Shown piece by piece: positions 2,799-49,087 of a DNA stretch of 64,000 nucleotides (position 1 is the stretch's first letter; each line of letters starts with the position of its first letter). The stretch is taken from NCBI GenBank assembly GCA_041736465.1, contig JBGSTO010000706.1:6588-70587 (forward strand), given 5' to 3'. The DNA is from Anaerolineales bacterium. GTDB lineage: Bacteria > Chloroflexota > Anaerolineae > Anaerolineales > UBA4823. Both the position numbers and the translations under genes were made by a program. The notes below the pieces were generated by a model. That model had not been told where the DNA came from. It saw only the letters and a program-made list of their open reading frames with translations, and searched no databases.

Positions 2799-5176
2799 AT
2801 GCGGCCCACACGAACCAACCCCAATCGATGAGCTTGCTCGACAGCCTCAGGATTGTCTGGGCGATCACCGCCAAGGACATCCTGGAGGGATTCAAGAACA
2901 AGAATTTGCTCGCCGTGCTCATTTCCGCTCTGTTCATGGTGATCTTCTACCGGTATATGGGCGTGTTCTTGCGGGAAGCAGAACCACCCAATATTCTCAT
3001 CTACGATGCCGGGGAGAGCGCCGGCGCACCATCTGCCCTGGTAGCTTTCCTGCAAAACAGCGACGCAGTGTCTGCCTACACCTACAAATCCGAAGCCGTG
3101 ATGAAGGAAACGCTGACACACGGCGACCTGCCAGAACTGGGCCTCGTCATCCCTCCAGGATTCGATCAATCGCTGCAAACCGGCGCTCCGCTGGAGCTTC
3201 AAGGATATGTGCTGCGCTGGGTGAAACCGGCGGATGCCATCACTCTGCAGCGCAGCGTAGAGGCTGAGGTTTCCAACCTGCTCGGCAAACCCGTGCCGGT
3301 TAACATCGCAGGTAATACCGTCCAGCTCAATCCCGACTCTCACGGGCTTGGCGTTCAGGCCGGCATGGCGATGGTCTTCAGCATCGTGATGATCAGCATC
3401 AGCCTGCTGGGCAACCTGATGCTGGACGAGAAACAGGCGCATACGCTGGATGCTTTGCGCGTCTCTCCGGCAAGCGCCGCTCACCTGGTGCTCTCCAAAG
3501 CGCTCACCGGCATTTTTTACTGTCTGCTGATGGCTGCGGTTGCCGCCTTTCTCAACAGGGAGCTGATCGTTCACTGGTGGCTGCTGTTCCTGGGAGTGCT
3601 TGCCGGGTCGCTGTTTACCGTCTCCCTGGGGCTGCTGCTGGGCATGTCGATTGAGAATCGCGGGCAGATGACTCTTCTCGCCTGGGTGATGATTCTGCCT
3701 CTGTTTCTGCCGCTCATATTCGTGATGATTGAAGAGCTTCTGCCCGCGTGGCTGGTAAAAGTCTCGACACTGATTCCGACGACAGGGTTGTTCAATTTGA
3801 TCCTGGCATCCTTCGCCGGCGAAATCGCCTGGCAGCCAACACTGCTGAGGATTGGCTGGAATCTGGCCTGCGCGGCTGTTGTGATGCTGGTGGTTATCTG
3901 GCAGGTGAAGCGCCAGGATGCCGGAGAGCAGGTAGATCTCGTTCCTGGGTGGCTGCGAAGATTTTTCCACACCCTGCGGCAAGAGACCCATCCGCCGGCA
4001 CACCTCCCGGAAACAGCTTCCGTAAAACCCAAATTACCGCGGGCAGCCTTAATCCCCGAACCGCAGGCAGCCAGACCGGTGCTGCAGAGCGGTCTGCCGG
4101 CAAACCTGCGCATCATCTGGGCAATCGCTGCTAAAGATATGCGCGATGCCTTCCATAACAAGCTGATCCTGTCCATCTTCCTGGCAAGCATGTTCATCCT
4201 GCTGTCCAATTCGGCGCTGCCTCTGCTGATCGAGCGCAGCAGTGATCCAACCGTAATCGTGTACGATGAAGGGCAGTCAACCATACTGCGGGCGTGGGCC
4301 ATCGGCGAAGGCTTCCGGGTGCGCACAACCGACAGCCGGGAGGAGATGGAGTCTATCCTGACCAGCTCTCCGGTTACCTACCTGGGGATGGTACTGCCCT
4401 CAGATTTTGATGCCCGCGCCGGCAGCAGCCAACCAGTCGAGCTGCAGGGCTATGCCGCTCACTGGGCAGATAAAGAAAAAATAGCCGGATGGGTGACCTT
4501 CTTTGAGGGGGAACTGAGCCAGGCATCCTGGAGCACAGTGCGGATTCAGTTAGCGGCTGAGCCGGTCTATCCTCCCTCCCAGTCTTCGGGACAGAACGCT
4601 TTGCTCACGCTCTCGGTGGTCATCGTTCTGATCACAGTTGGGCTGGCGCTGGTGCCCATCCTGCTGGTCGAGGAAAAAGAAAGTCACACCCTGGCTGCCA
4701 TGCTGGTTTCCCCTGCAAATATCTCCCTGGTGATCGCTGGAAAGGCATTGGCCGGGATGCTGTATTGTATGACGGCCGCGCTGGCAGGCATGATCTTAAA
4801 CCGGGCAGTCTTCATCCACTGGGGGGTTGTTTTCCTGGTGGCTTTGGTCTGCGCCATATTCGTCGTCGCCACCGGCTTGCTGATCGGGATGCTTGCTAAC
4901 AGCCCGACAGCGGCTGCTTCCATCGCCGGACCGCTGATCTTCTTGCTGTTGGTGCCGACCATGACCCGGGCTTTCAGACCTGAAGGCTGGCCCCGGTTGG
5001 TAAAAACCATCCTGGAGTGGCAGCCTGGCTCGCTGATGATCAACCTCTTCTCATTGCCCATGACACGCGATGTGCCGCTGAGCATCTTGTGGAGCAATGC
5101 AGCCGCTTTGCTGGCAATGGCTGGTGGGCTCTTTCTCGCCGTGTATCTGGTTGCCCGGCGCAGTATGTACCGGTAA
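2795..5176 (+). CDS. Tandem-fused (internally duplicated) ABC-2 / NatB-like permease
   Basis: ATG 2795 overlaps the upstream stop (ATGA). The two halves are homologous: SLRIVWAITAKDILEGFKNKN matches NLRIIWAIAAKDMRDAFHNK, and DEKQAHTLDALRVSPAS matches EEKESHTLAAMLVSPAN. Each half has one N-terminal TM helix, a large extracytoplasmic loop and a C-terminal TM bundle. Confidence 0.85.
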   Translation: MNAAHTNQPQSMSLLDSLRIVWAITAKDILEGFKNKNLLAVLISALFMVIFYRYMGVFLREAEPPNILIYDAGESAGAPSALVAFLQNSDAVSAYTYKSEAVMKETLTHGDLPELGLVIPPGFDQSLQTGAPLELQGYVLRWVKPADAITLQRSVEAEVSNLLGKPVPVNIAGNTVQLNPDSHGLGVQAGMAMVFSIVMISISLLGNLMLDEKQAHTLDALRVSPASAAHLVLSKALTGIFYCLLMAAVAAFLNRELIVHWWLLFLGVLAGSLFTVSLGLLLGMSIENRGQMTLLAWVMILPLFLPLIFVMIEELLPAWLVKVSTLIPTTGLFNLILASFAGEIAWQPTLLRIGWNLACAAVVMLVVIWQVKRQDAGEQVDLVPGWLRRFFHTLRQETHPPAHLPETASVKPKLPRAALIPEPQAARPVLQSGLPANLRIIWAIAAKDMRDAFHNKLILSIFLASMFILLSNSALPLLIERSSDPTVIVYDEGQSTILRAWAIGEGFRVRTTDSREEMESILTSSPVTYLGMVLPSDFDARAGSSQPVELQGYAAHWADKEKIAGWVTFFEGELSQASWSTVRIQLAAEPVYPPSQSSGQNALLTLSVVIVLITVGLALVPILLVEEKESHTLAAMLVSPANISLVIAGKALAGMLYCMTAALAGMILNRAVFIHWGVVFLVALVCAIFVVATGLLIGMLANSPTAAASIAGPLIFLLLVPTMTRAFRPEGWPRLVKTILEWQPGSLMINLFSLPMTRDVPLSILWSNAAALLAMAGGLFLAVYLVARRSMYR

Positions 5177-6838: not shown

Positions 6839-8092
6839 CTACTCGACGATTGTCTCGTCTTCGCCGCTCTTCGTCTCGTCCACTTCTTCAGCCATAAACG
6901 TTTTGTAGTCGAGATCGGCATAATGGGGTGAATCCACTTTGCGCAGGCTCAGGCCGATGCGGCGCCGTTCGGCATCAATTTTAATGACTCGCAGCGTCAG
7001 CGTATCGCCTTCTTTGACCACCTCTTTAGGGTGACCGATGCGCTGCTCGCTCAGCTCTGAGACGTGAATCAGGCCTTCCAGATCTTCGCCCAGGCTGGCA
7101 AATGCGCCGAACTTGGTCAGGTGGGTGATCTTGCCTTCGATGAGCTGGCCTTCCTTGATGTGACCGACGCGCCGCACCCAGGGATCGTCCAGAAGCTGGC
7201 GGATGGATAAACCGATGCGTTTGCGGTCACGATCCACGCTGATGACTTTTACATCGACTTCCTGGCCCACTTTGAGCACCTCGTTCGGGTGCTGAATACG
7301 ATCCCAGGAGATCTCAGAAAGATGTACCAGGCCATCAGCGCCGTCGATATTCACAAATGCGCCGAAATCAGCCACGCTGGTCACTCGCCCTTTGCGAATG
7401 TCTCCCGGGTTCAGCTCATCCAGCAAGCGGTCTTTCAACGACTCGCGCGTTTCTTGCAGGGCAGAGCGTTCGGAAAGAATCAAACGGCGGCGCTCGCGAT
7501 CCACCTCGATGATTTTCACGCTGATCTTATCACCGACCATCTTGCCCCAGCGCTGGTCTGGCGTATCTCCCGACATAGTGGCACGGCGCACCATGCTGAT
7601 TTGAGACGCAGGCACAAAACCACGCAGACGCCCGATTGGCACCAACAACCCGCCCTTGTTGAAGCCGATGATCTTGCTGTCGTACACGTCGTTCGATTCC
7701 AGCAGCGCTTCGGCTTCTTCCCAATCTCGCTCTTCGCGAGCGCGAGCATAGGACAATACTACATTGCCGTTTGCATCTTCTGGAACCAGCACGTAAACGG
7801 GAATCTCATCTCCCACGCGGAGGCTGGCGCGCTCCTCAGCGGGGATAGATTCCAGTTCACGACCGGAAATCACACCTTCCGATTTGGTTCCAACACTCAC
7901 CAGGATTTCATTCTCTCCCAGGGTGGCGACGATACCCGTACGGATTTCACCTTGTTTGGGGAAATCCAGGCCCAGTCCTTCCGCTTCCAACAGGGACTCC
8001 ATCGAAGCTGAATCTGGTTGTGGCTGTAGGACTTCTGCTTGCTCGCTTGCGGGCTGTCCCCCTTGCCCGATGATGACGTCTTTCTCTTCCAT
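6839..8092 (-). CDS. rpsA: 30S ribosomal protein S1 (four S1 domains)
   Basis: 417 aa with repeated S1 OB-fold modules (GEIRTGIV..., IIGFNKGGLLVPIGRLRGFVPASQIS, GDIRKGRVTSVADFGAFVNIDGADGLVHLSEIS, GQLIEGKITHLTKFGAFASL...GLIHVSELS). Confidence 0.9.
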   Translation of the reverse strand: MEEKDVIIGQGGQPASEQAEVLQPQPDSASMESLLEAEGLGLDFPKQGEIRTGIVATLGENEILVSVGTKSEGVISGRELESIPAEERASLRVGDEIPVYVLVPEDANGNVVLSYARAREERDWEEAEALLESNDVYDSKIIGFNKGGLLVPIGRLRGFVPASQISMVRRATMSGDTPDQRWGKMVGDKISVKIIEVDRERRRLILSERSALQETRESLKDRLLDELNPGDIRKGRVTSVADFGAFVNIDGADGLVHLSEISWDRIQHPNEVLKVGQEVDVKVISVDRDRKRIGLSIRQLLDDPWVRRVGHIKEGQLIEGKITHLTKFGAFASLGEDLEGLIHVSELSEQRIGHPKEVVKEGDTLTLRVIKIDAERRRIGLSLRKVDSPHYADLDYKTFMAEEVDETKSGEDETIVE

Positions 8093-8216: not shown

Positions 8217-9320
8217 ATGCCGTATATCTATCCGTTTACTGCAATTGTTGCGCAGGAGCGCATGAAACGCGCCCTGGTACTGAATGCCGTTGATCCACGC
8301 ATCGGCGGAGTTCTGATCCGCGGCGAGCGGGGTACCGCCAAATCTACGGCAGCCAGAGCCTTAGCGGCATTGCTGCCGAAAGTTGCCCTGGTAGCAGACT
8401 GCCGTTTCGGTTGTGACCCAGATCGCCCGACCACCTGGTGCACTGAATGCCGTGAGAGAGCTGAGCGCGGCCAGATGCTGCCGGTAGAACTGCGCACAAC
8501 GCCTTTCGTCAATTTACCCGTTTCGGCAACCGAAGACCGCGTGGTAGGCACCCTCGACATCGAAAAGGCTATCCAAAAAGGCGAGCGCCACTTCGAACCC
8601 GGCGTACTGGCAGCCGCCAATCGTGGGCTGCTGTATATCGATGAGGTCAACCTTTTGGATGACCATGTCGTTGATCTTCTGCTTGACTCTGCAGCCATGG
8701 GCATGAACATCGTCGAGCGGGAAGGCATCTCTTTCTCACACCCGGCGCGCTTCATCCTGGTCGGGACGATGAATCCCGAAGAAGGCGATCTGCGCCCGCA
8801 GCTGCTGGACCGGTTTGCGCTCTCGGTGGAAATTCACGGCATTCGCGATGCCCGTGAACGCGTACTCATCATGGAGCGAAACCTGGCCTTCGAAAGCAGC
8901 CCTGAAGATTTCCGCAAACAGTGGCTGCACTCTGAAGATGATCTGTCCCAACAGATTGACCAAGCGCGCCTGCTGGTGGATCAGGTTACCTACAGCCGCC
9001 GCGACCTGCTCTCCATTGCAGCGCTGAGCGCTTCGCTGAATGTTGATGGACATCGCGCCGACCTCGTTATCCTCAAGACGGCTCGCGCTCACGCAGCTTT
9101 CGAAGGGCGCAAAGCCATCACCGATCGTGATATCGCCCTGGCTGCCGAACTGGCGCTGCCCCACCGCATCAAGCGCGGCCCCTTCCACCAGGCTGAGATC
9201 AGCATGGAAGACCTGCAGGAGCGCATCGAGCAGCTCCAGGGGCAGACCTTTTCTTCCGGCGAACCTGAACCGGTCCCGGATGAGAACCCTCAGCAAAACC
9301 CCGAAAAAAAAAAGGGGTGA
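8217..9320 (+). CDS. Magnesium-chelatase subunit I (ChlI/BchI)-like AAA+ ATPase
   Basis: YPFTAIVAQERMKRALVLNAVDPRIGGVLIRGERGTAKST (Walker A), LYIDEVNLLDDHVVDLLLD (Walker B), GTMNPEEGDLRPQLLDRF. It is collinear with BchI as I remember it. There is a Cys-rich insert CRFGCDPDRPTTWCTEC. The C-terminal tail is Pro/Glu-rich and ends EKKKG. Confidence 0.85.
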   Translation: MPYIYPFTAIVAQERMKRALVLNAVDPRIGGVLIRGERGTAKSTAARALAALLPKVALVADCRFGCDPDRPTTWCTECRERAERGQMLPVELRTTPFVNLPVSATEDRVVGTLDIEKAIQKGERHFEPGVLAAANRGLLYIDEVNLLDDHVVDLLLDSAAMGMNIVEREGISFSHPARFILVGTMNPEEGDLRPQLLDRFALSVEIHGIRDARERVLIMERNLAFESSPEDFRKQWLHSEDDLSQQIDQARLLVDQVTYSRRDLLSIAALSASLNVDGHRADLVILKTARAHAAFEGRKAITDRDIALAAELALPHRIKRGPFHQAEISMEDLQERIEQLQGQTFSSGEPEPVPDENPQQNPEKKKG

Positions 9321-9348
9321 GTCCGGAGATTTTACCGGAAGAGGACTC
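9304..9348 (+). other. A10 homopolymer containing the heptamer A_AAA_AAG, followed by a small hairpin, at the ChlI-like/vWA gene junction
   Basis: Positions 9304-9313 are ten A residues followed by GGGG. In the ChlI frame the codons are GAA AAA AAA AAG GGG TGA. GAGTCC (9319-9324) can pair with GGACTC (9343-9348), or alternatively TCCGG (9322-9326) with CCGGA (9335-9339). Confidence 0.9.
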
Positions 9349-10267
9349 TAACCGACATCCCGCCGAGCCTGCGCCGCAGCAAGTCTTCGACACAGGCAGG
9401 GCAAACTGGTGGGAAGGCGGCGAAAAGGTTAAGATCGGGCAGTCTTTCATCCCCCGAAAAATCGAAAACCCTCTCGACCGGACGAGCCGCCGCCAGAGCG
9501 GTCGCCGGTCGCGCACCCGTACGGATCGAAAACGCGGCCGCTACATTCAAGCGCGCCCTTCTCCTGGCAAACCATACGACCTGGCTTTCGATGCCACCCT
9601 GCGCGCCGCTGCCCCATTTCAACGACAGCGCAGCGAACTGCGCAAACGTGTGGCTTTTGCGGTGCGCTCGTCCGATTACCAGCGCAAGATTCGCATCAAG
9701 AAAGCTTCTAACCTGGTTTTGTTCGTGGTGGATGCCTCCTGGTCGATGGCAGTGGCTGAGCGCATGGCAGCTACCAAGGGCGCGATCCTGTCGCTGCTCA
9801 CCGATGCATACCAACGCCGCGACCGGGTAGGACTGGTTGTTTTCCAGAAAGATCGCGCCACACTGGTGCTGCCGCCTACCAACTCGGTGCACCTGGCGCA
9901 GCGCTCCCTGGCAGACATCCCGGTTGGCGGTAAGACGCCGCTCTCCGCAGGCCTGATCATGGCGCACGAAGTCATCCGTAAAGAACGCATCGTGCATCCG
10001 GACATCAATCCATTGATCATACTGCTGACCGATGGCGCCGGGAATGTATCGCTTACCAGCCTGCCGCCGCAGGAAGAAGCTCACCGTATCGCCGCTCAAG
10101 TTGCCGAGGATGAAATCCGCAGCGTGGTGATCAATATGGAACACGCCGCTTTTGACCAGGGATTGGCTCAATCTCTGGCTGAGCAGCTCCAGGCGCCCTG
10201 CTATACGCTCAACGAACTAAAGGCTGAAGCCCTGTATCAAAAGGTGCGCGCAGAGATGGCTGCGTAG
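9317..10267 (+). CDS. von Willebrand factor A (vWA) domain protein resembling the C-terminal half of ChlD/BchD
   Basis: GTG 9317 overlaps stop TGA 9318-9320 (GTGA). An acidic/Pro-rich and then basic N-terminal linker precedes the vWA domain. The MIDAS-like motif is VLFVVDASWSM. Other vWA-type segments are GGKTPLSAGL and IILLTDGAGNV. Confidence 0.8.
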   Translation: MSPEILPEEDSNRHPAEPAPQQVFDTGRANWWEGGEKVKIGQSFIPRKIENPLDRTSRRQSGRRSRTRTDRKRGRYIQARPSPGKPYDLAFDATLRAAAPFQRQRSELRKRVAFAVRSSDYQRKIRIKKASNLVLFVVDASWSMAVAERMAATKGAILSLLTDAYQRRDRVGLVVFQKDRATLVLPPTNSVHLAQRSLADIPVGGKTPLSAGLIMAHEVIRKERIVHPDINPLIILLTDGAGNVSLTSLPPQEEAHRIAAQVAEDEIRSVVINMEHAAFDQGLAQSLAEQLQAPCYTLNELKAEALYQKVRAEMAA

Positions 10268-10276
10268 GCGAAACAC

Positions 10277-11881
10277 GTGTCTCATCCTGCTCCCCAAGAC
10301 AGATCGCTTTTGCTGTCCGTCAATGCCGGAATACAGCTGCGCAGATGGATTTTTATCCTGATGCTGAGCTTCGGGCTGGCTGCCTGCCAGGGCACGCTCG
10401 AACCTGCCTCTGGTGTGCAAACGCCCCCTCCTTCTACGACTGCTGCCTCCTTACCCGAAAAAACTCCGACTACGGAACCTGGCTCGTCGCCCACAATGAG
10501 CCCAACGGCATCTATTGATGCTTCCCCCTCCGGGTTAGAGACTGCAACGCCGCCGGCAGATGCGTTCCCCGGCATTCAGGGGCCGAGTGCGCAGTACACG
10601 CTGACCGCAGTTCTGAATTACTCCGCTCATTACATTACCGTCGACCAGCAAATCGCCTATACCAATCGATCCAGCGATGTGCTGACAGACCTGCGCTTGA
10701 TGGTCGAGCCGGCTTATTACCCGGGATCATTTCGCCTCAATGGCATCACCGTTCGGTCCGGACCGCAAATTGGAGAACCGGTCTGGGATACTGGTCAAAT
10801 CTCGCTGTCGCTGCTATCTCCATTGTCGCCAGGTGAAAGTATAACGCTGGCATTGTCGTATGAAATCAACCTGCCGAAGCCGTCGCCATCCGAAGAAACG
10901 CGCCCGGTCCCATTCGGATACACCGAACGCCAGACCAACCTGGTCGACTGGTACCCATTCATCCCTCCGTACCGGGATGGAAGCGGCTGGTTGGCCAACA
11001 AAGCCTATTTTTTTGGCGAGCACCTGGCATATGAAGCCGCGAATTTCACCGTCAATCTACGCATATCGGATGAGAATTCTTTCCACGTCGTCGCTGCCAG
11101 TTCCCAGGCGCAAGTAGACGGCGAGTGGCGAAGATATCAGATCAACGATGCGCGTGGCTTTGCTTTTTCGGTGAGCACGCAGTACCAGGTAGAAAGCCTG
11201 CAAGTAGGAGCCGTTCAGGTCACCAGCTATACCTTTCCCTTTAATCCAACTGCCGGGGAAGCCGTTTTGGATACCACAGCCAAAGCGGTGGCTTTGTACA
11301 GCGAGCTTTTTGGCCCTTACCCGCATGACACTCTGGCGGTGGTCGAAGCAAACTTCCTGGATGGGATGGAATACGACGGGCTGTACTTTCTGAGTAATGG
11401 CTTCTACAATCTCTACCAGGGCACGCCGGCAGAATACCTGATCGCCATCGCTGCGCACGAGACCGCTCACCAGTGGTTTTACGGGCTGGTGGGCAACGAT
11501 CAGGGAAATGAACCCTGGTTGGATGAGGCCTTATGCACCTACAGCGAACGCCTGTTTTTTGAGCGCTACTACCCGGAAGCCCTGGACTGGTGGTGGACTT
11601 ACCGCATAAACTACTACCAACCGCGCGGCAGCGTGGATGGTAGCATCTATAATCCGGGGGGGTACCGGTCTTACCGGGATGCAGTCTATCTCAATGGGGC
11701 TGTCTTCATGGAAGAGCTGCGGAAGACCATTGGCGAGCAGGCATTCCGTTCTTTTTTACGCGACTACGTAGATCAGAATCGAAATAAGATTGCTACCGGT
11801 GAAGATTTTTTTGACCTGTTGAAGCAGTACACAACGGTAGACCTGAGCGAGATCAAAGCGCGCTTCTTTTCAGCGCCTTAA
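10277..11881 (+). CDS. Lipoprotein M1-family (gluzincin) zinc metallopeptidase
   Basis: The lipobox is FILMLSFGLAACQG, followed by a Pro/Thr/Ser-rich linker. HETAH plus 18 residues plus E (HETAHQWFYGLVGNDQGNEPWLDEAL) equals the M1 HEXXH-X18-E signature. The gene starts 10 nt after the vWA stop. The start codon (GTG 10277) is uncertain. Confidence 0.8.
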   Translation: MSHPAPQDRSLLLSVNAGIQLRRWIFILMLSFGLAACQGTLEPASGVQTPPPSTTAASLPEKTPTTEPGSSPTMSPTASIDASPSGLETATPPADAFPGIQGPSAQYTLTAVLNYSAHYITVDQQIAYTNRSSDVLTDLRLMVEPAYYPGSFRLNGITVRSGPQIGEPVWDTGQISLSLLSPLSPGESITLALSYEINLPKPSPSEETRPVPFGYTERQTNLVDWYPFIPPYRDGSGWLANKAYFFGEHLAYEAANFTVNLRISDENSFHVVAASSQAQVDGEWRRYQINDARGFAFSVSTQYQVESLQVGAVQVTSYTFPFNPTAGEAVLDTTAKAVALYSELFGPYPHDTLAVVEANFLDGMEYDGLYFLSNGFYNLYQGTPAEYLIAIAAHETAHQWFYGLVGNDQGNEPWLDEALCTYSERLFFERYYPEALDWWWTYRINYYQPRGSVDGSIYNPGGYRSYRDAVYLNGAVFMEELRKTIGEQAFRSFLRDYVDQNRNKIATGEDFFDLLKQYTTVDLSEIKARFFSAP

Positions 11882-16810: not shown

Positions 16811-16892
16811 TGCCGAAGGTGGGAATCGAACCCACACTCCCGAAGGAACACGATTTTGAGTCGTGCGCGTCTGCCTATTCCGCCACTCCGGC
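16811..16892 (-). tRNA. tRNA-Leu (anticodon CAA)
   Basis: The minus-strand sequence is GCCGGAGTGGCGGAATAGGCAGACGCGCACGACTCAAAATCGTGTTCCTTCGGGAGTGTGGGTTCGATTCCCACCTTCGGCA. The acceptor pairs GCCGGAG with CTTCGGC. The anticodon stem is CACGA/TCGTG with loop CTCAAAA. It has a long variable arm and a GTGGG-TTCGATT-CCCAC T arm. CCA is not encoded. Confidence 0.9.
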
Positions 16893-27235: not shown

Positions 27236-27883
27236 ATGTTTATTACTTTCGAAGGCCCTGAAGGCAGCGGTAAAACGACCCAGATCTGCAATCTGGCAGA
27301 ATATTTGCGCCAGAAGGGATTTAACGTCCTGCACACGCGCGAGCCGGGCGGAACAGGTATCGGCGACCAGATACGCTCGGTCTTGTTCGACATGCAGAAC
27401 AAAGCCATGCACCCGCGCGCCGAGATCCTGCTCTTTCAGGCCTCCCGGGCACAGCTCGTGGAGCAAGTCATTCGCCCGTATTTGCAATCGGGGGGGGTGG
27501 TGCTGTGCGATCGCTACGCCGACTCAACCCTGGCTTACCAGGGATATGGGCACCAGTTCGATCTGGACACCCTGGCTGAAATTGTCAGTTTTGCCACGGG
27601 AGGCTTGAAACCCGACCTGACCTTACTTCTCGATCTGGATGTGGAAGAGGGCCTGGGACGGCGCGCTCAGGGAGGCGGCTGGAACCGCCTGGATGCTTAC
27701 GAATTGGAATTTCACCGGCGGGTGCGGCAAGGCTTTTTAGCCCTGGCCCGGCAGGAACCCCATCGCTGGGTCAGGATCGATGCTGCGCAGCCGCCCGATA
27801 GCGTGCAGGCGGCAGTGCGCGCCGTCGTGCTGGATCGCCTGGCTGTGGCAGGATACCCGCCAGGCGTAGAGAGCCGGCTATAG
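27236..27883 (+). CDS. tmk: Thymidylate kinase
   Basis: MFITFEGPEGSGKTTQ, TREPGGT, DRYADSTLAYQG. Confidence 0.92.
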   Translation: MFITFEGPEGSGKTTQICNLAEYLRQKGFNVLHTREPGGTGIGDQIRSVLFDMQNKAMHPRAEILLFQASRAQLVEQVIRPYLQSGGVVLCDRYADSTLAYQGYGHQFDLDTLAEIVSFATGGLKPDLTLLLDLDVEEGLGRRAQGGGWNRLDAYELEFHRRVRQGFLALARQEPHRWVRIDAAQPPDSVQAAVRAVVLDRLAVAGYPPGVESRL

Positions 27884-28264
27884 ATCATCCCCGCCGCCAG
27901 CATCCCCCCCCAGGTCCGGGATGGCTTGTTCGATTTCGTCCGGTGACTGTCCGGATTCCAAACGGCCAACCACCTCGTCGAATTCTGGCCCCAGCTCTTC
28001 CCCCATCTCGCGGCTCATCTCGCGCATCATTCGCCCCATTGCCTTGGGATCGTCTTCCAGCCCATCTAACATCGATGGATCTGACAGCGATTCCATGCGG
28101 CTGTCTTCGGACCGGGCGACGCGCACACGCGTGATTCTGCGCTGCACCTGATCGCTCTGGCAGTGTGGGCAGTGCACGCGGCGTGTGCCGTACTCACAGA
28201 AAGTCATGAAAACATCAAAACGTTTGCGGCATTTCAAGCAGGTGTAAGGATAGGTTGGCATCAT
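27878..28264 (-). CDS. FmdB-family zinc-ribbon protein with an acidic tail
   Basis: MPTYPYTCLKCRKRFDV...VHCPHCQSDQVQR is the CxxC...CxxC pattern typical of FmdB/CxxC_CxxC_SSSS. Its stop codon abuts the tmk stop (CTATAG). Confidence 0.75.
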   Translation of the reverse strand: MMPTYPYTCLKCRKRFDVFMTFCEYGTRRVHCPHCQSDQVQRRITRVRVARSEDSRMESLSDPSMLDGLEDDPKAMGRMMREMSREMGEELGPEFDEVVGRLESGQSPDEIEQAIPDLGGDAGGGDDL

Positions 28265-44803: not shown

Positions 44804-47800
44804 TCAGCGGTAGATCAAGCGGTACAGGCTATTGATGAACAGCTTTTGCCCGGTTTCATTCATGATGCTCGGATTGCCATTGAAGCCCCACAGCATGTAG
44901 ATGCGGTTCTCCATCAGCAGATTGGCGTATGTGCTGTCAGCGTCATTCAGGCCAAAGATCTCCACGCCGGAAGGTTCGGCTCCCACGTAGATATCCACCC
45001 GGGGGTTGAGCGTGCGGTACAGCACCAGCGGATCTTTGGGCAATGGGATGAGGAAATACGGCTGACTCCAGATCAAGTCGCCGCCGTCCAACCAACTGAT
45101 GGCGGTTCCGGCGCCGTGTGCGCCCTGGGGATAGCCGATTTGCAGCTTAATCTGTCCGAAAAAGGCGTAGCCGCCTTCTCCTATGCCAAGCACGCCCCGC
45201 TGGCTGTTCACCACTGCGCTGACCGCCTCCGGTGTGCCCCAGCTGCTCAGGGATCCCGTGTCCGGGCCGATTACGATCACATCATAAGGGAAGAACGACG
45301 TTTTCTCGACCTCACCCATATGCACCGTATCCACCAGCATGCCGGCCTGCGAAATCAGCTTCTCGAAAGCCAGGCGGCTGTCCAGATCGGTCTTCCAGAT
45401 GTAAGCTGCCCGGCGCAGCACGTTGAATCCGGTGCTGGCGTAGCGCAGGAAGGTCTCGCCGCTGTTATTTACCCCTGAAGCAACTACCTTCACCATGTAG
45501 CTTCCGGGTACCGATACGCTGTACAGGGTATCGGCATACCAGCCGTCTCCAGCTTTGCCATCCCCATGGGCGCCGTCGTCGTACAGGCGCATGATCAGGC
45601 TGCCATTGACGCTCTCCTCGCCCGGCACGACGCCCGTCCCCGCCACCAGGGCGAATACATCTGCCCCGGGAATCGGTTTGTAGTCGCTCAGCACACCGTA
45701 GATTGGCACTGGCGTGCCTACCACGCGCTCATCTGGATCGCCTCCCACAGCAGCGATGAGCGTGGTGTTCGAGCGCCCGGACAGCGTGAAATGGTATTCC
45801 AGGCTGGGCTTGAGCATACTGATCGCCACCTGCCAGGTGCCTGCTTTCGGGTTAAGCACCCGCAGTTGGTGGTGGGTATCGCTGCGGTATTCAGCATCCG
45901 GCTTGACCGCCGCCCCGCCTGGATCTATCAGCCTCAGGGTGAGGTAGCCCGCCGGGTCATTCCAGTTGATGGCGAAGACGGCTTCCGGCACGCCATCCGG
46001 CACTGCCACCTGCAGCACGGTGGGTTCTTGAGCTGGCCCTTGCAGCGCTGCCAGGCGCTGGTAACCGTGGGTCAATTCACCAACCGAGAGATAAGCATCT
46101 GCCAGGCGGTTGGGCAGCGTATCGGGCATGTCCAGGGGCGGGCCAGCTTCGGGCAGGCCGCCCAGGCTGGCGACCGGAGCGATCACGTCCACGAAGAAAT
46201 AGTTGCCGTGGCGCGCCCCGGCAATGCTCTGCAGCAGGGCTGTGTCGGCGTCCTCGCCTAAAGCCACGGTGTGGATCACCACATCGGTGACGGTGGGGGC
46301 AATGTCAGCCCAGTAAGGGGGCACGTTTTCCCAGCCATCGCTGAGCAGCACCAGGGACCAATCGTGATCGGGGATGCCGCTGCCAGTCAGCAGGCTGTGG
46401 CCTGTCTGCACCCCTTGCCCCAATGCAGTTGACCCGCCGGCAGACAGCCCATCGATGGCAGCAATGGCATCCTGGCGGGTGGTTGTATCGGGAGCGATTT
46501 CAGTCAGACCGAAGTCGGTGCTGGCGCTGTTGGCAAAGCTGGTGACTCCGACATAATCGCCGTCGCTCAAGAAGTCGACAAAGGCGCTGGCGGCATTTTG
46601 GGCGGCGCCGATCTTGTCATCCGACAGCATGCTGCCGGAGCGATCCAGTACAATGACCTCGTCTTTGGGCGTCTTGGGCAGGTAATAAACCGCGCTCATC
46701 TCCAGGTCGCTGCCGGATCCGCTTAATTCTACCTGCAGGTCGTAGTAATCGGCGCTGGATTGAGCTGGCGGATTGACGACCAGGAAGGTGGTGTCGCTGG
46801 CGGTGTACAGGGAAAGCACATCGCCGCTGTTGGCGCCCACCTGCACGCTGAAATCTCCCGGCGCCAGGGAAAGTGTCCATCCGGCGGGTGCAGCCGTGCT
46901 GACCTGCACCAGGATTTTGTCCGGAGAGCTATGCTCGCCGGCGTTCTCCGGTACGGTCTTGAGCGGGTAAAGGATGTCGAACACCGGCACACAAGCCTGC
47001 TGGCTGCTGGCATTCAGGTTGTCTGTCTCACCCAGCCCCGCTTCGAAGATGCCATTATAGTTGGTGTCTTCGCAGCCCTCGGGTGAACCGTCGTTGTCGT
47101 TGTCGAAATCCAGCTCTTTGCGCAGCCCGTCGCCATCCCAATCGGAGCCGCGGTGATTGTAATTGCCGGCCGCGTCGAAGACATACTCGCGCATGTCCTG
47201 TTTGTCCAGCACCCAGTCGTTATCGCTGTCGCTGTCGTAAACGCCGGTGAAGAAGCGCCTGGCCTCATCGAAATCCATGATACCATCGCCGTCGCTGTCG
47301 GTCGATACGCTGGCTTCGTCATGGCGGGAAGTGCCGCTGGCAGGGCCAACCCAGTAGCCGTCGATCGTTTGTGTGTCGTAATCCTGCCAGCGCTCCAGAT
47401 CGGGCGGCTGGTCAGGATCGAGCACGTGCAGGAACTGGTCGCCAGAATCGGTCTGGCGGTAGCCATCGATCACCATCATGTGCCCCGGTCTGCGGAACAT
47501 GATCGGGCGGTCAGCGTCGATCCAGATGATGATATCGGCAAAGGCGGGCTTGCCGCCGAGGGTCGAATAAGTGCCCAGGTTGAGCGCCCAGGCAAAGATC
47601 TCATCCTCCTCACCCGGATACCACATGCCGCGGTTGTAGCCCAGGTCATTGTCGGGATTGGAGTCATTTGATCCGGGGTTGGTGTTGCCGGTCCATTCCT
47701 CGAGGATGTAATAGCTCAGGCGGTCCATGCTGAGCACATCTCCCGGTGAGGTGTTGTACCAGCTTGCCACCATGCGGGCGGAGGCGCGCACACAGTACAT

Positions 47801-49087
47801 ATTGCCGTGCACGAACTTGGTGTAATCGGCGCACGGCGGGTTGACGCAGGGGGCGGGCGAGTCCCAGGCGTCCTCGGGCGTATCGGTAGCAGAGTTGCCC
47901 TCTGGAGCGCCATCCAGACCCAGCAGGTAGCTGTCTTTGTTTTGGCGGAGTTTGGCGATGCCCAGCACCTTCTCCAGGTCGGCTTCTCCGTAAAATGCAG
48001 AGCTGACCGCCTCGATGGTGAACGGTCCGATCCACCCCGCTGGAAAACCGGCGTATTCTGGGTTGATGCGCCAGTAGTAGACGCCCGCCGCCAGGCTGGG
48101 TGAAGGTTTAAAATAGGTGCTGGTCAGGAACTGGTCGAACAGAGGTGTGGCAAAATCGGCGGCGTCATCAAGCTGGAAGCGATAGCGGCTCGCTCCTGCT
48201 GAAGCCCTCCAGCTCAGTGACAGGGTGCTGGTTTCGACGCGCGCGCCGCTCTCGGGTGTGATGTAGGTAGAAGGCTGGACGGGATTGGGTGTGCCAGGGG
48301 TCAGGTGGCTGGCGGGGTAGTTGGCCCACACCTGTAAGCCGAACCCCGGCGCTCCGGGGTAGCGCCCCAGCGACTCATTCGGCTCGAGAATATCGCTCTC
48401 GCTGATGTCGCCGAGCCCGTTCTCAAAACTGGCAGCCTGTCCGGATCCCCACAGCCCGGCGCTGACTGCATTAGCCCCGGCAGAATCTGAGAAGCCTCCC
48501 CAGGCAAGGAAATCGGCGATGTGCGCCGGATCCAGCCCGCCGCTGCGGTAAAGAGCTGTCTGCCCGGCTGCATCGGGAAAGATATCGGTCATGCCGGCAG
48601 GGGTGTGCAGGTGGATGACGCCGTCCGAAGGATCGTATTCGTCTGCCCCGGCGCCGGCGCCGTCAAAGTGGATCAATAGAAAAGTACCCTTCGGCACGGC
48701 AGTCAGTGCGGCTGGCAGGGTGTAAACTTGCCCAAGCTCATTGGTGACTTTCCAGCCTGCCATATTGAGCGTTGGCAGGGCACCTGGTGCGAGCGGCTGC
48801 TCAGCCGCCGGGGCGGACTGGCTGCTGCTTGCGGCCCGCACCACCACCGGCAGGTACAGGTGCTGCATCTGCTGGTCGACGTACAGCTCTACCCAGGCGT
48901 AGCCATCGACAGAGGGCTTGGGCATGACCTCGTTCAGCACAGCGAACAGCTCTCCCACGCTGAATTGGGCTGCTTCTACCCGCACGGGTACGGCTGTTTG
49001 CCGGGCAGCCTCTCCGCTGCCAGAGAACAGCAAGATCACCCCCAGGCAGAAGCCCAGGAGTACGTGCTTGATCCATTGGATTTTCAT
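44804..49087 (-). CDS. 1427-aa secreted multidomain protein with lamin-tail-like, FN3-like, papain/C39-like peptidase, TSP3-type Ca-binding repeat and vWA domains plus an unknown C-terminal domain
   Basis: Signal peptide MKIQWIKHVLLGFCLGVILLFSGSGEA. LTD-like LNEVMPKPSVDGYAWVELYV. Cys/His/Asp peptidase contexts MYCVRASARMV, GHMMVIDGY and HVLDPD. Asp-rich repeats DSDGDGIMDFDE, DSDSDNDWVLD and DWDGDGLRKELDFDNDNDG. vWA MIDAS VIVLDRSGSM ... GGSTALG ... LLSDGWEN. Confidence 0.8.
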   Translation of the reverse strand: MKIQWIKHVLLGFCLGVILLFSGSGEAARQTAVPVRVEAAQFSVGELFAVLNEVMPKPSVDGYAWVELYVDQQMQHLYLPVVVRAASSSQSAPAAEQPLAPGALPTLNMAGWKVTNELGQVYTLPAALTAVPKGTFLLIHFDGAGAGADEYDPSDGVIHLHTPAGMTDIFPDAAGQTALYRSGGLDPAHIADFLAWGGFSDSAGANAVSAGLWGSGQAASFENGLGDISESDILEPNESLGRYPGAPGFGLQVWANYPASHLTPGTPNPVQPSTYITPESGARVETSTLSLSWRASAGASRYRFQLDDAADFATPLFDQFLTSTYFKPSPSLAAGVYYWRINPEYAGFPAGWIGPFTIEAVSSAFYGEADLEKVLGIAKLRQNKDSYLLGLDGAPEGNSATDTPEDAWDSPAPCVNPPCADYTKFVHGNMYCVRASARMVASWYNTSPGDVLSMDRLSYYILEEWTGNTNPGSNDSNPDNDLGYNRGMWYPGEEDEIFAWALNLGTYSTLGGKPAFADIIIWIDADRPIMFRRPGHMMVIDGYRQTDSGDQFLHVLDPDQPPDLERWQDYDTQTIDGYWVGPASGTSRHDEASVSTDSDGDGIMDFDEARRFFTGVYDSDSDNDWVLDKQDMREYVFDAAGNYNHRGSDWDGDGLRKELDFDNDNDGSPEGCEDTNYNGIFEAGLGETDNLNASSQQACVPVFDILYPLKTVPENAGEHSSPDKILVQVSTAAPAGWTLSLAPGDFSVQVGANSGDVLSLYTASDTTFLVVNPPAQSSADYYDLQVELSGSGSDLEMSAVYYLPKTPKDEVIVLDRSGSMLSDDKIGAAQNAASAFVDFLSDGDYVGVTSFANSASTDFGLTEIAPDTTTRQDAIAAIDGLSAGGSTALGQGVQTGHSLLTGSGIPDHDWSLVLLSDGWENVPPYWADIAPTVTDVVIHTVALGEDADTALLQSIAGARHGNYFFVDVIAPVASLGGLPEAGPPLDMPDTLPNRLADAYLSVGELTHGYQRLAALQGPAQEPTVLQVAVPDGVPEAVFAINWNDPAGYLTLRLIDPGGAAVKPDAEYRSDTHHQLRVLNPKAGTWQVAISMLKPSLEYHFTLSGRSNTTLIAAVGGDPDERVVGTPVPIYGVLSDYKPIPGADVFALVAGTGVVPGEESVNGSLIMRLYDDGAHGDGKAGDGWYADTLYSVSVPGSYMVKVVASGVNNSGETFLRYASTGFNVLRRAAYIWKTDLDSRLAFEKLISQAGMLVDTVHMGEVEKTSFFPYDVIVIGPDTGSLSSWGTPEAVSAVVNSQRGVLGIGEGGYAFFGQIKLQIGYPQGAHGAGTAISWLDGGDLIWSQPYFLIPLPKDPLVLYRTLNPRVDIYVGAEPSGVEIFGLNDADSTYANLLMENRIYMLWGFNGNPSIMNETGQKLFINSLYRLIYR

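Follow-up and report, generated by a model that had tools for sequence, protein, structure and literature searches.

The fs-chlD genes, published as 'magnesium/cobalt chelatase' genes, are recoded genes in which a ChlI-like open reading frame (ORF) overlaps a vWA ORF lying in the -1 frame, such that the small as well as the medium subunit are supplied by one gene. They are reportedly the subject of a study by Antonov (2020, Mol Biol Evol 37:2268). A magnesium-chelatase cluster of -1 frameshifted genes (fs-genes), including the Chloroflexi genus Herpetosiphon, was described by Antonov et al. in 2013, and in Escherichia coli reporters the frameshift product of magnesium-chelatase fs-genes amounted to 63%, 40% and 10% for runs of 11, 9 and 7 adenines (A11, A9 and A7), respectively (PMC3711429). 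In a subsequent review, purifying selection was reported for the A_AAA_AAR site (Atkins et al. 2016; PMC5009743). The Anaerolineaceae have since been placed among the fs-chlD carriers by Kuznetsov, Milenkin & Antonov (2022), the genera listed being Anaerolinea, Ornatilinea, Longilinea, Levilinea and Brevefilum, which are without cobN/chlH and without the B12 and chlorophyll pathways (PMC9227772). The locus described here, at positions 8217-10267 (+ strand) of a 64,000-nucleotide stretch of contig JBGSTO010000706.1 from an Anaerolineales bacterium (referred to below as the window), is a further example of this published phenomenon rather than a discovery. It is very probably subject to programmed recoding, with both of its called ORFs belonging to one chlD-like gene that has two products. 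In common with published fs-chlD genes, the ChlI-like ORF overlaps the -1-frame vWA ORF, an A_AAA_AAR/poly-A shift site is located in the linker, both subunits would derive from the one gene and in-frame fused homologues exist. This agrees with the leading hypothesis of an earlier, first-pass annotation, namely a short ChlI-like and a long ChlD-like product related by a -1 shift, which is supported both by the comparative data set out below and by the published family.

Standard decoding of this gene would halt at a TGA codon at 9318-9320 (+) and so yield a 367-aa ChlI-like AAA+ ATPase of approximately 40 kDa from the 0-frame ORF (8217-9320, +). A net -1 frame change inside a run of ten adenines (A10; 9304-9313, +), the putative slippage site, would direct a fraction of the products into the vWA frame and generate a ChlD-like protein of 683 aa, with an estimated mass of approximately 75 kDa. 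The two partners of an I/D AAA+ motor with two rings could thereby come from a single gene at a set ratio. The 3' end of the ChlI-like ORF reads CCC GAA AAA AAA AAG GGG TGA and contains, in phase with the 0 frame, the -1 tandem-slippage heptamer A_AAA_AAG (9308-9314, +), whose 0-frame codons are AAA (9309-9311) and AAG (9312-9314) and which is separated from the stop that ends the short product by one codon (GGG). The -1 frame is closed upstream by a TGA at 9281-9283 (+) and is then open from 9284 to 10267, beginning 20 nt before the A10; its continuation beyond the run (9314-10267, +) encodes a linker, a basic stretch and a vWA domain, as seen from translation and Pfam matches. The first-pass annotation had reported the A10, the tail of the first ORF, the in-phase heptamer and the open -1 frame, and all of these are borne out by the sequence and its three-frame translation. 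It had also claimed four lysine residues at the fusion junction, where translation predicts three: whether the frame changes by a -1 slip or by one extra A in the mRNA, the predicted junction is ...NPEKKKGVSPEILPEEDSNR, reading ...NPEKKK-GVSPE... in the fusion, and the predicted tryptic peptide spanning it is GVSPEILPEEDSNR. The A10 is the sole run of at least nine identical bases in the window. At a G+C content of 58%, 0.19 A9 matches would be expected by chance and a run of at least nine A occurs once, the two A9 matches counted being overlapping registers of the single A10. The bare heptamer AAAAAAG is found 14 times in the window and is, unlike the A10, unremarkable alone.

The first ORF encodes a complete ChlI/BchI-like AAA+ module, with a Walker A motif (GERGTAKS), a Walker B motif (LLYIDE) and a Pro/Glu-rich tail, and it matches the Pfam families Mg_chelatase, AAA_5 and AAA_lid_2. 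Residues 4-327 match PDB structures of ChlI (8osf, 6l8d) and BchI (1g8p) with E values of 1e-92 to 1e-99, and the NCBIfam profile TIGR02030 BchI-ChlI is matched over positions 1-323 of 337 at 419 bits, which is under the cut-off. The second ORF opens with a Pro/acidic linker that carries an AEPAPQQVF...WWEGG motif, followed by a basic stretch and a region matching the Pfam families VWA_2 and VWA, in which a DASWS motif of the metal ion-dependent adhesion site (MIDAS) type is located. When 8217-9314 is joined to 9314-10267, with base 9314 read twice, the 683-aa conceptual fusion scores 792.2 bits against the NCBIfam profile TIGR02442 'putative cobaltochelatase' (cut-off 779.45), covering positions 1-640 of 641, and its residues 498-631 match the integrin-I domain of BchD (2x31). 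Against the same profile the first ORF scores 505.9 bits and the second 276.7, and neither half reaches any NCBIfam cut-off. In the database, the 120 best matches to the fusion each consist of one ORF of approximately 680-690 aa, come from Chloroflexota/Anaerolineales and have 65-81% identity, and their alignment contains a near-invariant KKK at the position of the A-run within an otherwise hypervariable Pro/Glu-rich linker. The layout of ChlD/BchD and TIGR02442 proteins is present in full, from the AAA+ module at the N-terminus through the Pro/acidic linker to a vWA domain bearing a MIDAS motif (DxSxS) at the C-terminus, and BchI/BchD structures match both halves. The ChlD-like fusion architecture with a Pro/Glu-rich linker that the first-pass annotation had recognised is upheld by the profile, Pfam and PDB matches. 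The locus differs from a canonical in-frame ChlD/BchD gene in that the genomic reading frame is interrupted.

Conservation was assessed in a sample to which GTDB species representatives contributed 80 loci and metagenome contigs another 80, with 159 of these loci spanning the site; 18 probably Nanopore-derived 'MFD' metagenome-assembled genomes (MAGs) were dropped from the layout counts. Alignment of orthologous loci had been suggested in the first-pass annotation as a check, and both the run (in 151 of the 159 Anaerolineae/Chloroflexota loci the homologous position has at least nine A, the rest being A7 or A8) and the -1 arrangement (about 113 short-read loci) are found to be kept. Tract lengths are mostly A9 or A10, with a single A12 and a single A14. 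The short-read GTDB set contains 51 loci with the -1 layout, including the window (31 A9, 19 A10 and 1 A14), and 11 that are in frame; in the metagenome set, the -1 layout is seen in 62 loci, whereas 12 are in frame and a +1 layout is seen in 2. All but one of these 113 -1-layout loci have at least nine A, the exception being L133 (A7). In nearly all of the 107 non-redundant -1 loci the 0-frame stop falls 1-3 codons past the run, and for the approximately 113 short-read loci the distance is nearly always 0-3 codons. Three junction types recur: that of the window (GAA AAA AAA AAG NNN TGA/TAA), NNA AAA AAA AAG TAA and GAA AAA AAA ACT TAA. An in-phase A_AAA_AAA or A_AAA_AAG heptamer is present in every -1 locus, and across these loci the A-run occurs in all three codon phases. 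The run carries 2 bits of information, as against less than 0.9 bit at flanking positions. AAA accounts for 52% of the lysine codons in the window, but some 150 loci have an unbroken run.

One explanation that does not invoke programmed decoding is a genomic frameshift, arising either from sequencing or assembly error (with a true run of A11 or A8) or from phase variation or pseudogenisation of a fused chlD gene. Homopolymers are indeed error-prone and mutable, close relatives of the locus are single in-frame ORFs, tract length does vary occasionally, as in L098 (A12) and L048 (A14), and the Nanopore-derived MFD MAGs show extra breaks in the same gene. Against this, an independent Logan assembly of SRR28170474 contains a 3.7-kb contig with 100% identity to the window, A10 included, and about 113 short-read assemblies, covering many species and samples, share the -1 layout. 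Because the run and the -1 layout recur across loci, and because the Logan contig is identical, sequencing error and recent decay are excluded. The two possibilities of this kind that the first-pass annotation had raised are accordingly not upheld: a homopolymer sequencing error is at odds with the Logan contig and the more than 100 independent short-read assemblies, and a decayed or phase-variable junction is at odds with a downstream frame that is intact over approximately 950 nt and conserved as protein across the -1-layout loci. Phase variation by change of run length was also considered and rejected, as in-frame relatives hold A9 or A10, not A11 or A8, and differ in frame through indels in the linker; it is the length of the run that is kept, not the frame. 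Among the loci compared, the window subtype was not encountered as an in-frame A11 version. The closest in-frame relative, L162 (81% identity), retains GC-A10-GGGGTGA, and its frame differs by an upstream linker indel that places the window's TGA in the +1 frame, 4 nt past the run. A genomic frameshift with no programmed decoding is consequently considered most improbable.

A number of loci stand out in tract length or layout: L098 (A12, +1 layout), L048 (A14) and L148 (A10, +1 layout), together with L133 and L075, in which an A7 is followed by an immediate stop. The tract is mutable in these outliers, which may be real variants or assembly errors. Further frame breaks elsewhere in the gene are found in the MFD MAGs L002, L003, L005, L010, L015, L016 and L022, and these call for caution when homopolymer lengths are inferred from such assemblies.

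A second explanation is that the locus comprises two ordinary genes, one chlI-like and the other vWA/chlD-C-like, coupled through a GTGA overlap, with the A-run serving as a lysine-rich tail. A GTG codon (9317-9319, +) does overlap the stop as GTGA, with AAGGGG just upstream, and could act as an independent start of the vWA protein, in which case the predicted N-terminus (fMet) would be MSPEILPEEDSNR. Public gene calls on the identical contig also annotate two genes, and some internal initiation was reported for certain clusters by Antonov et al. (2013; PMC3711429). This start is, however, not conserved, and most -1 loci offer the downstream ORF no start that could be used. Only 5 of the 63 loci listed (the window, L018, L019, L020 and L068) have a start codon, in each case GTG, at a distance of up to 6 nt from the run, twelve -1 loci are devoid of ATG, GTG and TTG up to 200 nt from the run, and in many others the first candidate start lies past the conserved PQ-VF...WWEGG motif, whereas conservation of the -1-frame peptide sets in with the first codon past the run (KKK-x-V/L-S..., PQ-VF, WWEGG). 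Moreover, AAGGGG directly abuts the GTG (0 nt spacing) and is too close to function as a Shine-Dalgarno element. A lysine tail would not require AAA codons exclusively, and the unbroken run is hard to reconcile with the lysine codon usage given above; likewise, the fusion passes the NCBIfam cut-off that its halves fail. As there is no conserved start but the peptide after the run is conserved, the downstream ORF is generally not initiated independently, and a frame change at the run is therefore needed. Two independent or coupled genes are thereby ruled out as a general explanation by the unconserved start codon, and for the window they are very unlikely.

The alternative that has to be weighed within a recoding model is that the frame change is purely ribosomal, by -1 tandem tRNA-Lys slippage on A_AAA_AAG as in E. 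coli dnaX, with a hairpin at 9319-9348 acting as a stimulator. The in-phase heptamer is identical to that of E. coli dnaX, heptamers of this kind in every -1 locus and the commonly close 0-frame stop are compatible with it, and the family has been described as an instance of programmed ribosomal frameshifting, 'usually' with a downstream structure (PMC9227772; PMC5009743). The parallels to the tau/gamma system extend to the production of a long and a short AAA+ protein and to a stop that soon follows the shift in one of the frames. The polarity, in contrast, is reversed: dnaX makes its long product by staying in the 0 frame and its short one by shifting, a polarity shared by the in-frame relatives of the window locus. 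In addition, E. coli dnaX needs both a Shine-Dalgarno element about 10 nt upstream and a stem-loop 5-9 nt downstream, and neither is supported at the window site.

With respect to the stem-loop, the first-pass annotation had noted a candidate of 6 bp, GAGTCC/GGACTC (9319-9348, +), with inner TCCGG/CCGGA pairing. This stem does exist on paper, beginning 4 nt past the heptamer and not 5 nt as reported, but its proposed role as a stimulator is unsupported by folding and comparison. The 46 nt at 9315-9360 fold at -11.5 kcal/mol, a chance-level value (z = -0.02 against dinucleotide shuffles). Downstream-fold z-scores were computed for 80 loci, with control segments taken from the same genes, and for the 50 nt past the run in 62 -1 loci the mean z of -0.35 falls between those of the controls (-0.08 and -0.51). 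RNAalifold returned no consensus pairs for the 15 most window-like loci, and explicit pair counts gave pairing in just 51% and 49% of cells for the two stems and showed no signal of covariation. A small hairpin in a shifted register (slide -1, 66% of cells paired) was not counted because it is located in the conserved codons P-E-I/V-x-x-E-E. Similarly, a hairpin enclosing the run itself (9299-9317, CCCCG-A10-GGGG, 5 bp with the A-run as loop; z of -1.5 for 9290-9360) was rejected, as its flanks are not conserved family-wide; the CCCCG is common to the closest relatives L094-L096 and L101, where it encodes Pro-Glu. Shine-Dalgarno-like motifs occur upstream in 50% of loci versus 13% of control windows, with scattered spacing, and this enrichment is attributable to the use of GAG/GGA (Glu/Gly) codons in the acidic linker. 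An upstream Shine-Dalgarno element conserved across the loci was not found, no such motif is present in the 22 nt upstream of the window's run, and no Rfam family, the dnaX element included, matches at the site.

The lack of a supported stem or Shine-Dalgarno element implies that the site is not the dnaX-type cassette named in the first-pass annotation and that the signal, as read from the sequence, is the homopolymer itself. This marks a difference from the published fs-chlD family, whose signals 'usually' include downstream RNA structure, none being detectable or conserved in the window clade; overall, nothing essential differs at the window locus. Two further observations fit poorly with a purely ribosomal mechanism. 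The heptamer needs just seven adenines, whereas the -1 loci, L133 apart, have at least nine, and the published frameshifting efficiency rises with run length (PMC3711429).

Strong downstream structure is nevertheless found among relatives, and this counts in favour of ribosomal slippage. The Thermoflexus-like loci L011 and L012 (both at 5086-5150), L013 (in which the run lies about 992 nt into the match), L091 and L092 are in-frame chlD-like genes with an A7 run and an in-phase A_AAA_AAA. These loci carry a strong hairpin approximately 10 nt downstream (CCGACGGGG...CCCGTCGG), with folding energies of -23 to -25 kcal/mol and z to -2.8, and a -1-frame TGA 26 nt past the run. They have a true dnaX-like layout, in which a shift would give the short product, unlike the stimulator-free A9-A10 sites.

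A closer parallel to the window site is the dnaX gene of Thermus thermophilus. There too the slippage site is a homopolymer of 9-10 A that needs no flanking stimulators, either genomic frame layout works, efficiency depends on run length and both products arise from a mixed mRNA population, a feature that by analogy may also apply to the window locus; the gene family is a different one. Two-ORF dnaX genes with A10 have likewise been noted (PMC3711429). By this route, RNA polymerase would add one A to give an A11 mRNA, as at the A9 run of Thermus dnaX, and -1 tandem slippage of the ribosome on A_AAA_AAG could contribute. Since the length of the run (at least nine A, in any codon phase and in both layouts) seems to be what selection acts on, it is proposed that the slip takes place largely during transcription, and the length-dependent pattern of slippage fits realignment of RNA polymerase at least as well as ribosomal frameshifting. 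If the gene is recoded, a mainly transcriptional slip is thus somewhat favoured, a mainly or purely ribosomal one is possible but doubtful and a comparable involvement of both is unlikely.

The in-frame relatives offer a further view of what is being conserved. A -1-frame stop is located within 26 nt past the run in 22 of 23 in-frame loci, compared with 23% at random positions in the same genes, and close stops in both alternative frames are present in 16 of the 23, compared with 3.9% at random positions. At least seven changes of layout, with the run retained, were counted on a neighbour-joining tree that comprised 137 loci. From these comparisons, what selection has kept looks to be the length of the run, and neither the reading frame nor a minimal heptamer. 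A tentative model, to which we give slightly less than even weight, is that the A9-A10 tract is 'frame-agnostic': slippage by RNA polymerase and/or the ribosome would yield both ChlI-like and ChlD-like products under either genomic layout, in-frame genes would likewise produce the short subunit when they slip into the nearby stops, flips between in-frame and -1 layouts through linker indels would be free of functional cost and selection would act on the length of the run. The persistence of A9-A10 in in-frame relatives and the repeated switching of layout are measured here; in existing descriptions of fs-chlD (PMC3711429, PMC5009743, PMC9227772), recoding is confined to the interrupted genes and is taken to be ribosomal frameshifting.

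Several points weigh against the conclusion that the window locus is a recoded gene with two products. The loci compared are phylogenetically related, and for that reason the counts do not represent independent events. Production of both proteins at the window locus, and the ratio between them, are predictions that rest on sequence comparison. The published reporter assays used genes of other genera in E. coli, a setting in which slippage by RNA polymerase and by the ribosome are inseparable (PMC3711429). The finding that no stimulatory structure or Shine-Dalgarno element was detected predicts a low efficiency if the mechanism is purely ribosomal. Lastly, some independent or coupled initiation of the vWA protein may occur at GTG 9317 in the window, with AAGGGG before it.

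If programmed recoding is accepted, the annotation of the locus changes from two called genes to one chlD-like gene with two products, a class of locus that automated pipelines split. The site would represent a clean natural example of how the stoichiometry of a two-ring AAA+ motor can be set from one gene. The comparison of some 160 loci, in which both layouts occur, the run length is constant and stimulators are lacking, also provides a handle on transcriptional versus translational slippage in this family. A ChlD/BchD-type medium subunit operates together with a large, porphyrin-binding subunit (ChlH, BchH or CobN), whereas the predicted ChlI/ChlD pair belongs to non-photosynthetic anaerobes in which a large subunit is not obvious. 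Neither a gene of CobN/ChlH size nor a second chlI is present in the 64-kb window; its largest ORF, and the sole one above 850 aa, is 44804-49087 (-; 1427 aa), which is not CobN/ChlH and whose lone Pfam match, at residues 810-966, is to a vWA domain.

Upstream of the chelatase-like gene, and divergent from it, lies a gene for a multi-S1-domain protein (6839-8092, -), an arrangement also found in the relatives L163-L165. The downstream neighbour varies, being an M1 peptidase in the window (10277-11881) and a CitMHS-type transporter in L164. Elsewhere in the window, approximately 400 nt separate a G8 run (27490-27497) from a C8 run (27904-27911) in a region that has no ORF of 250 aa or more, and the sole Rfam match above the gathering threshold is a tRNA gene at 16811-16892 (-).

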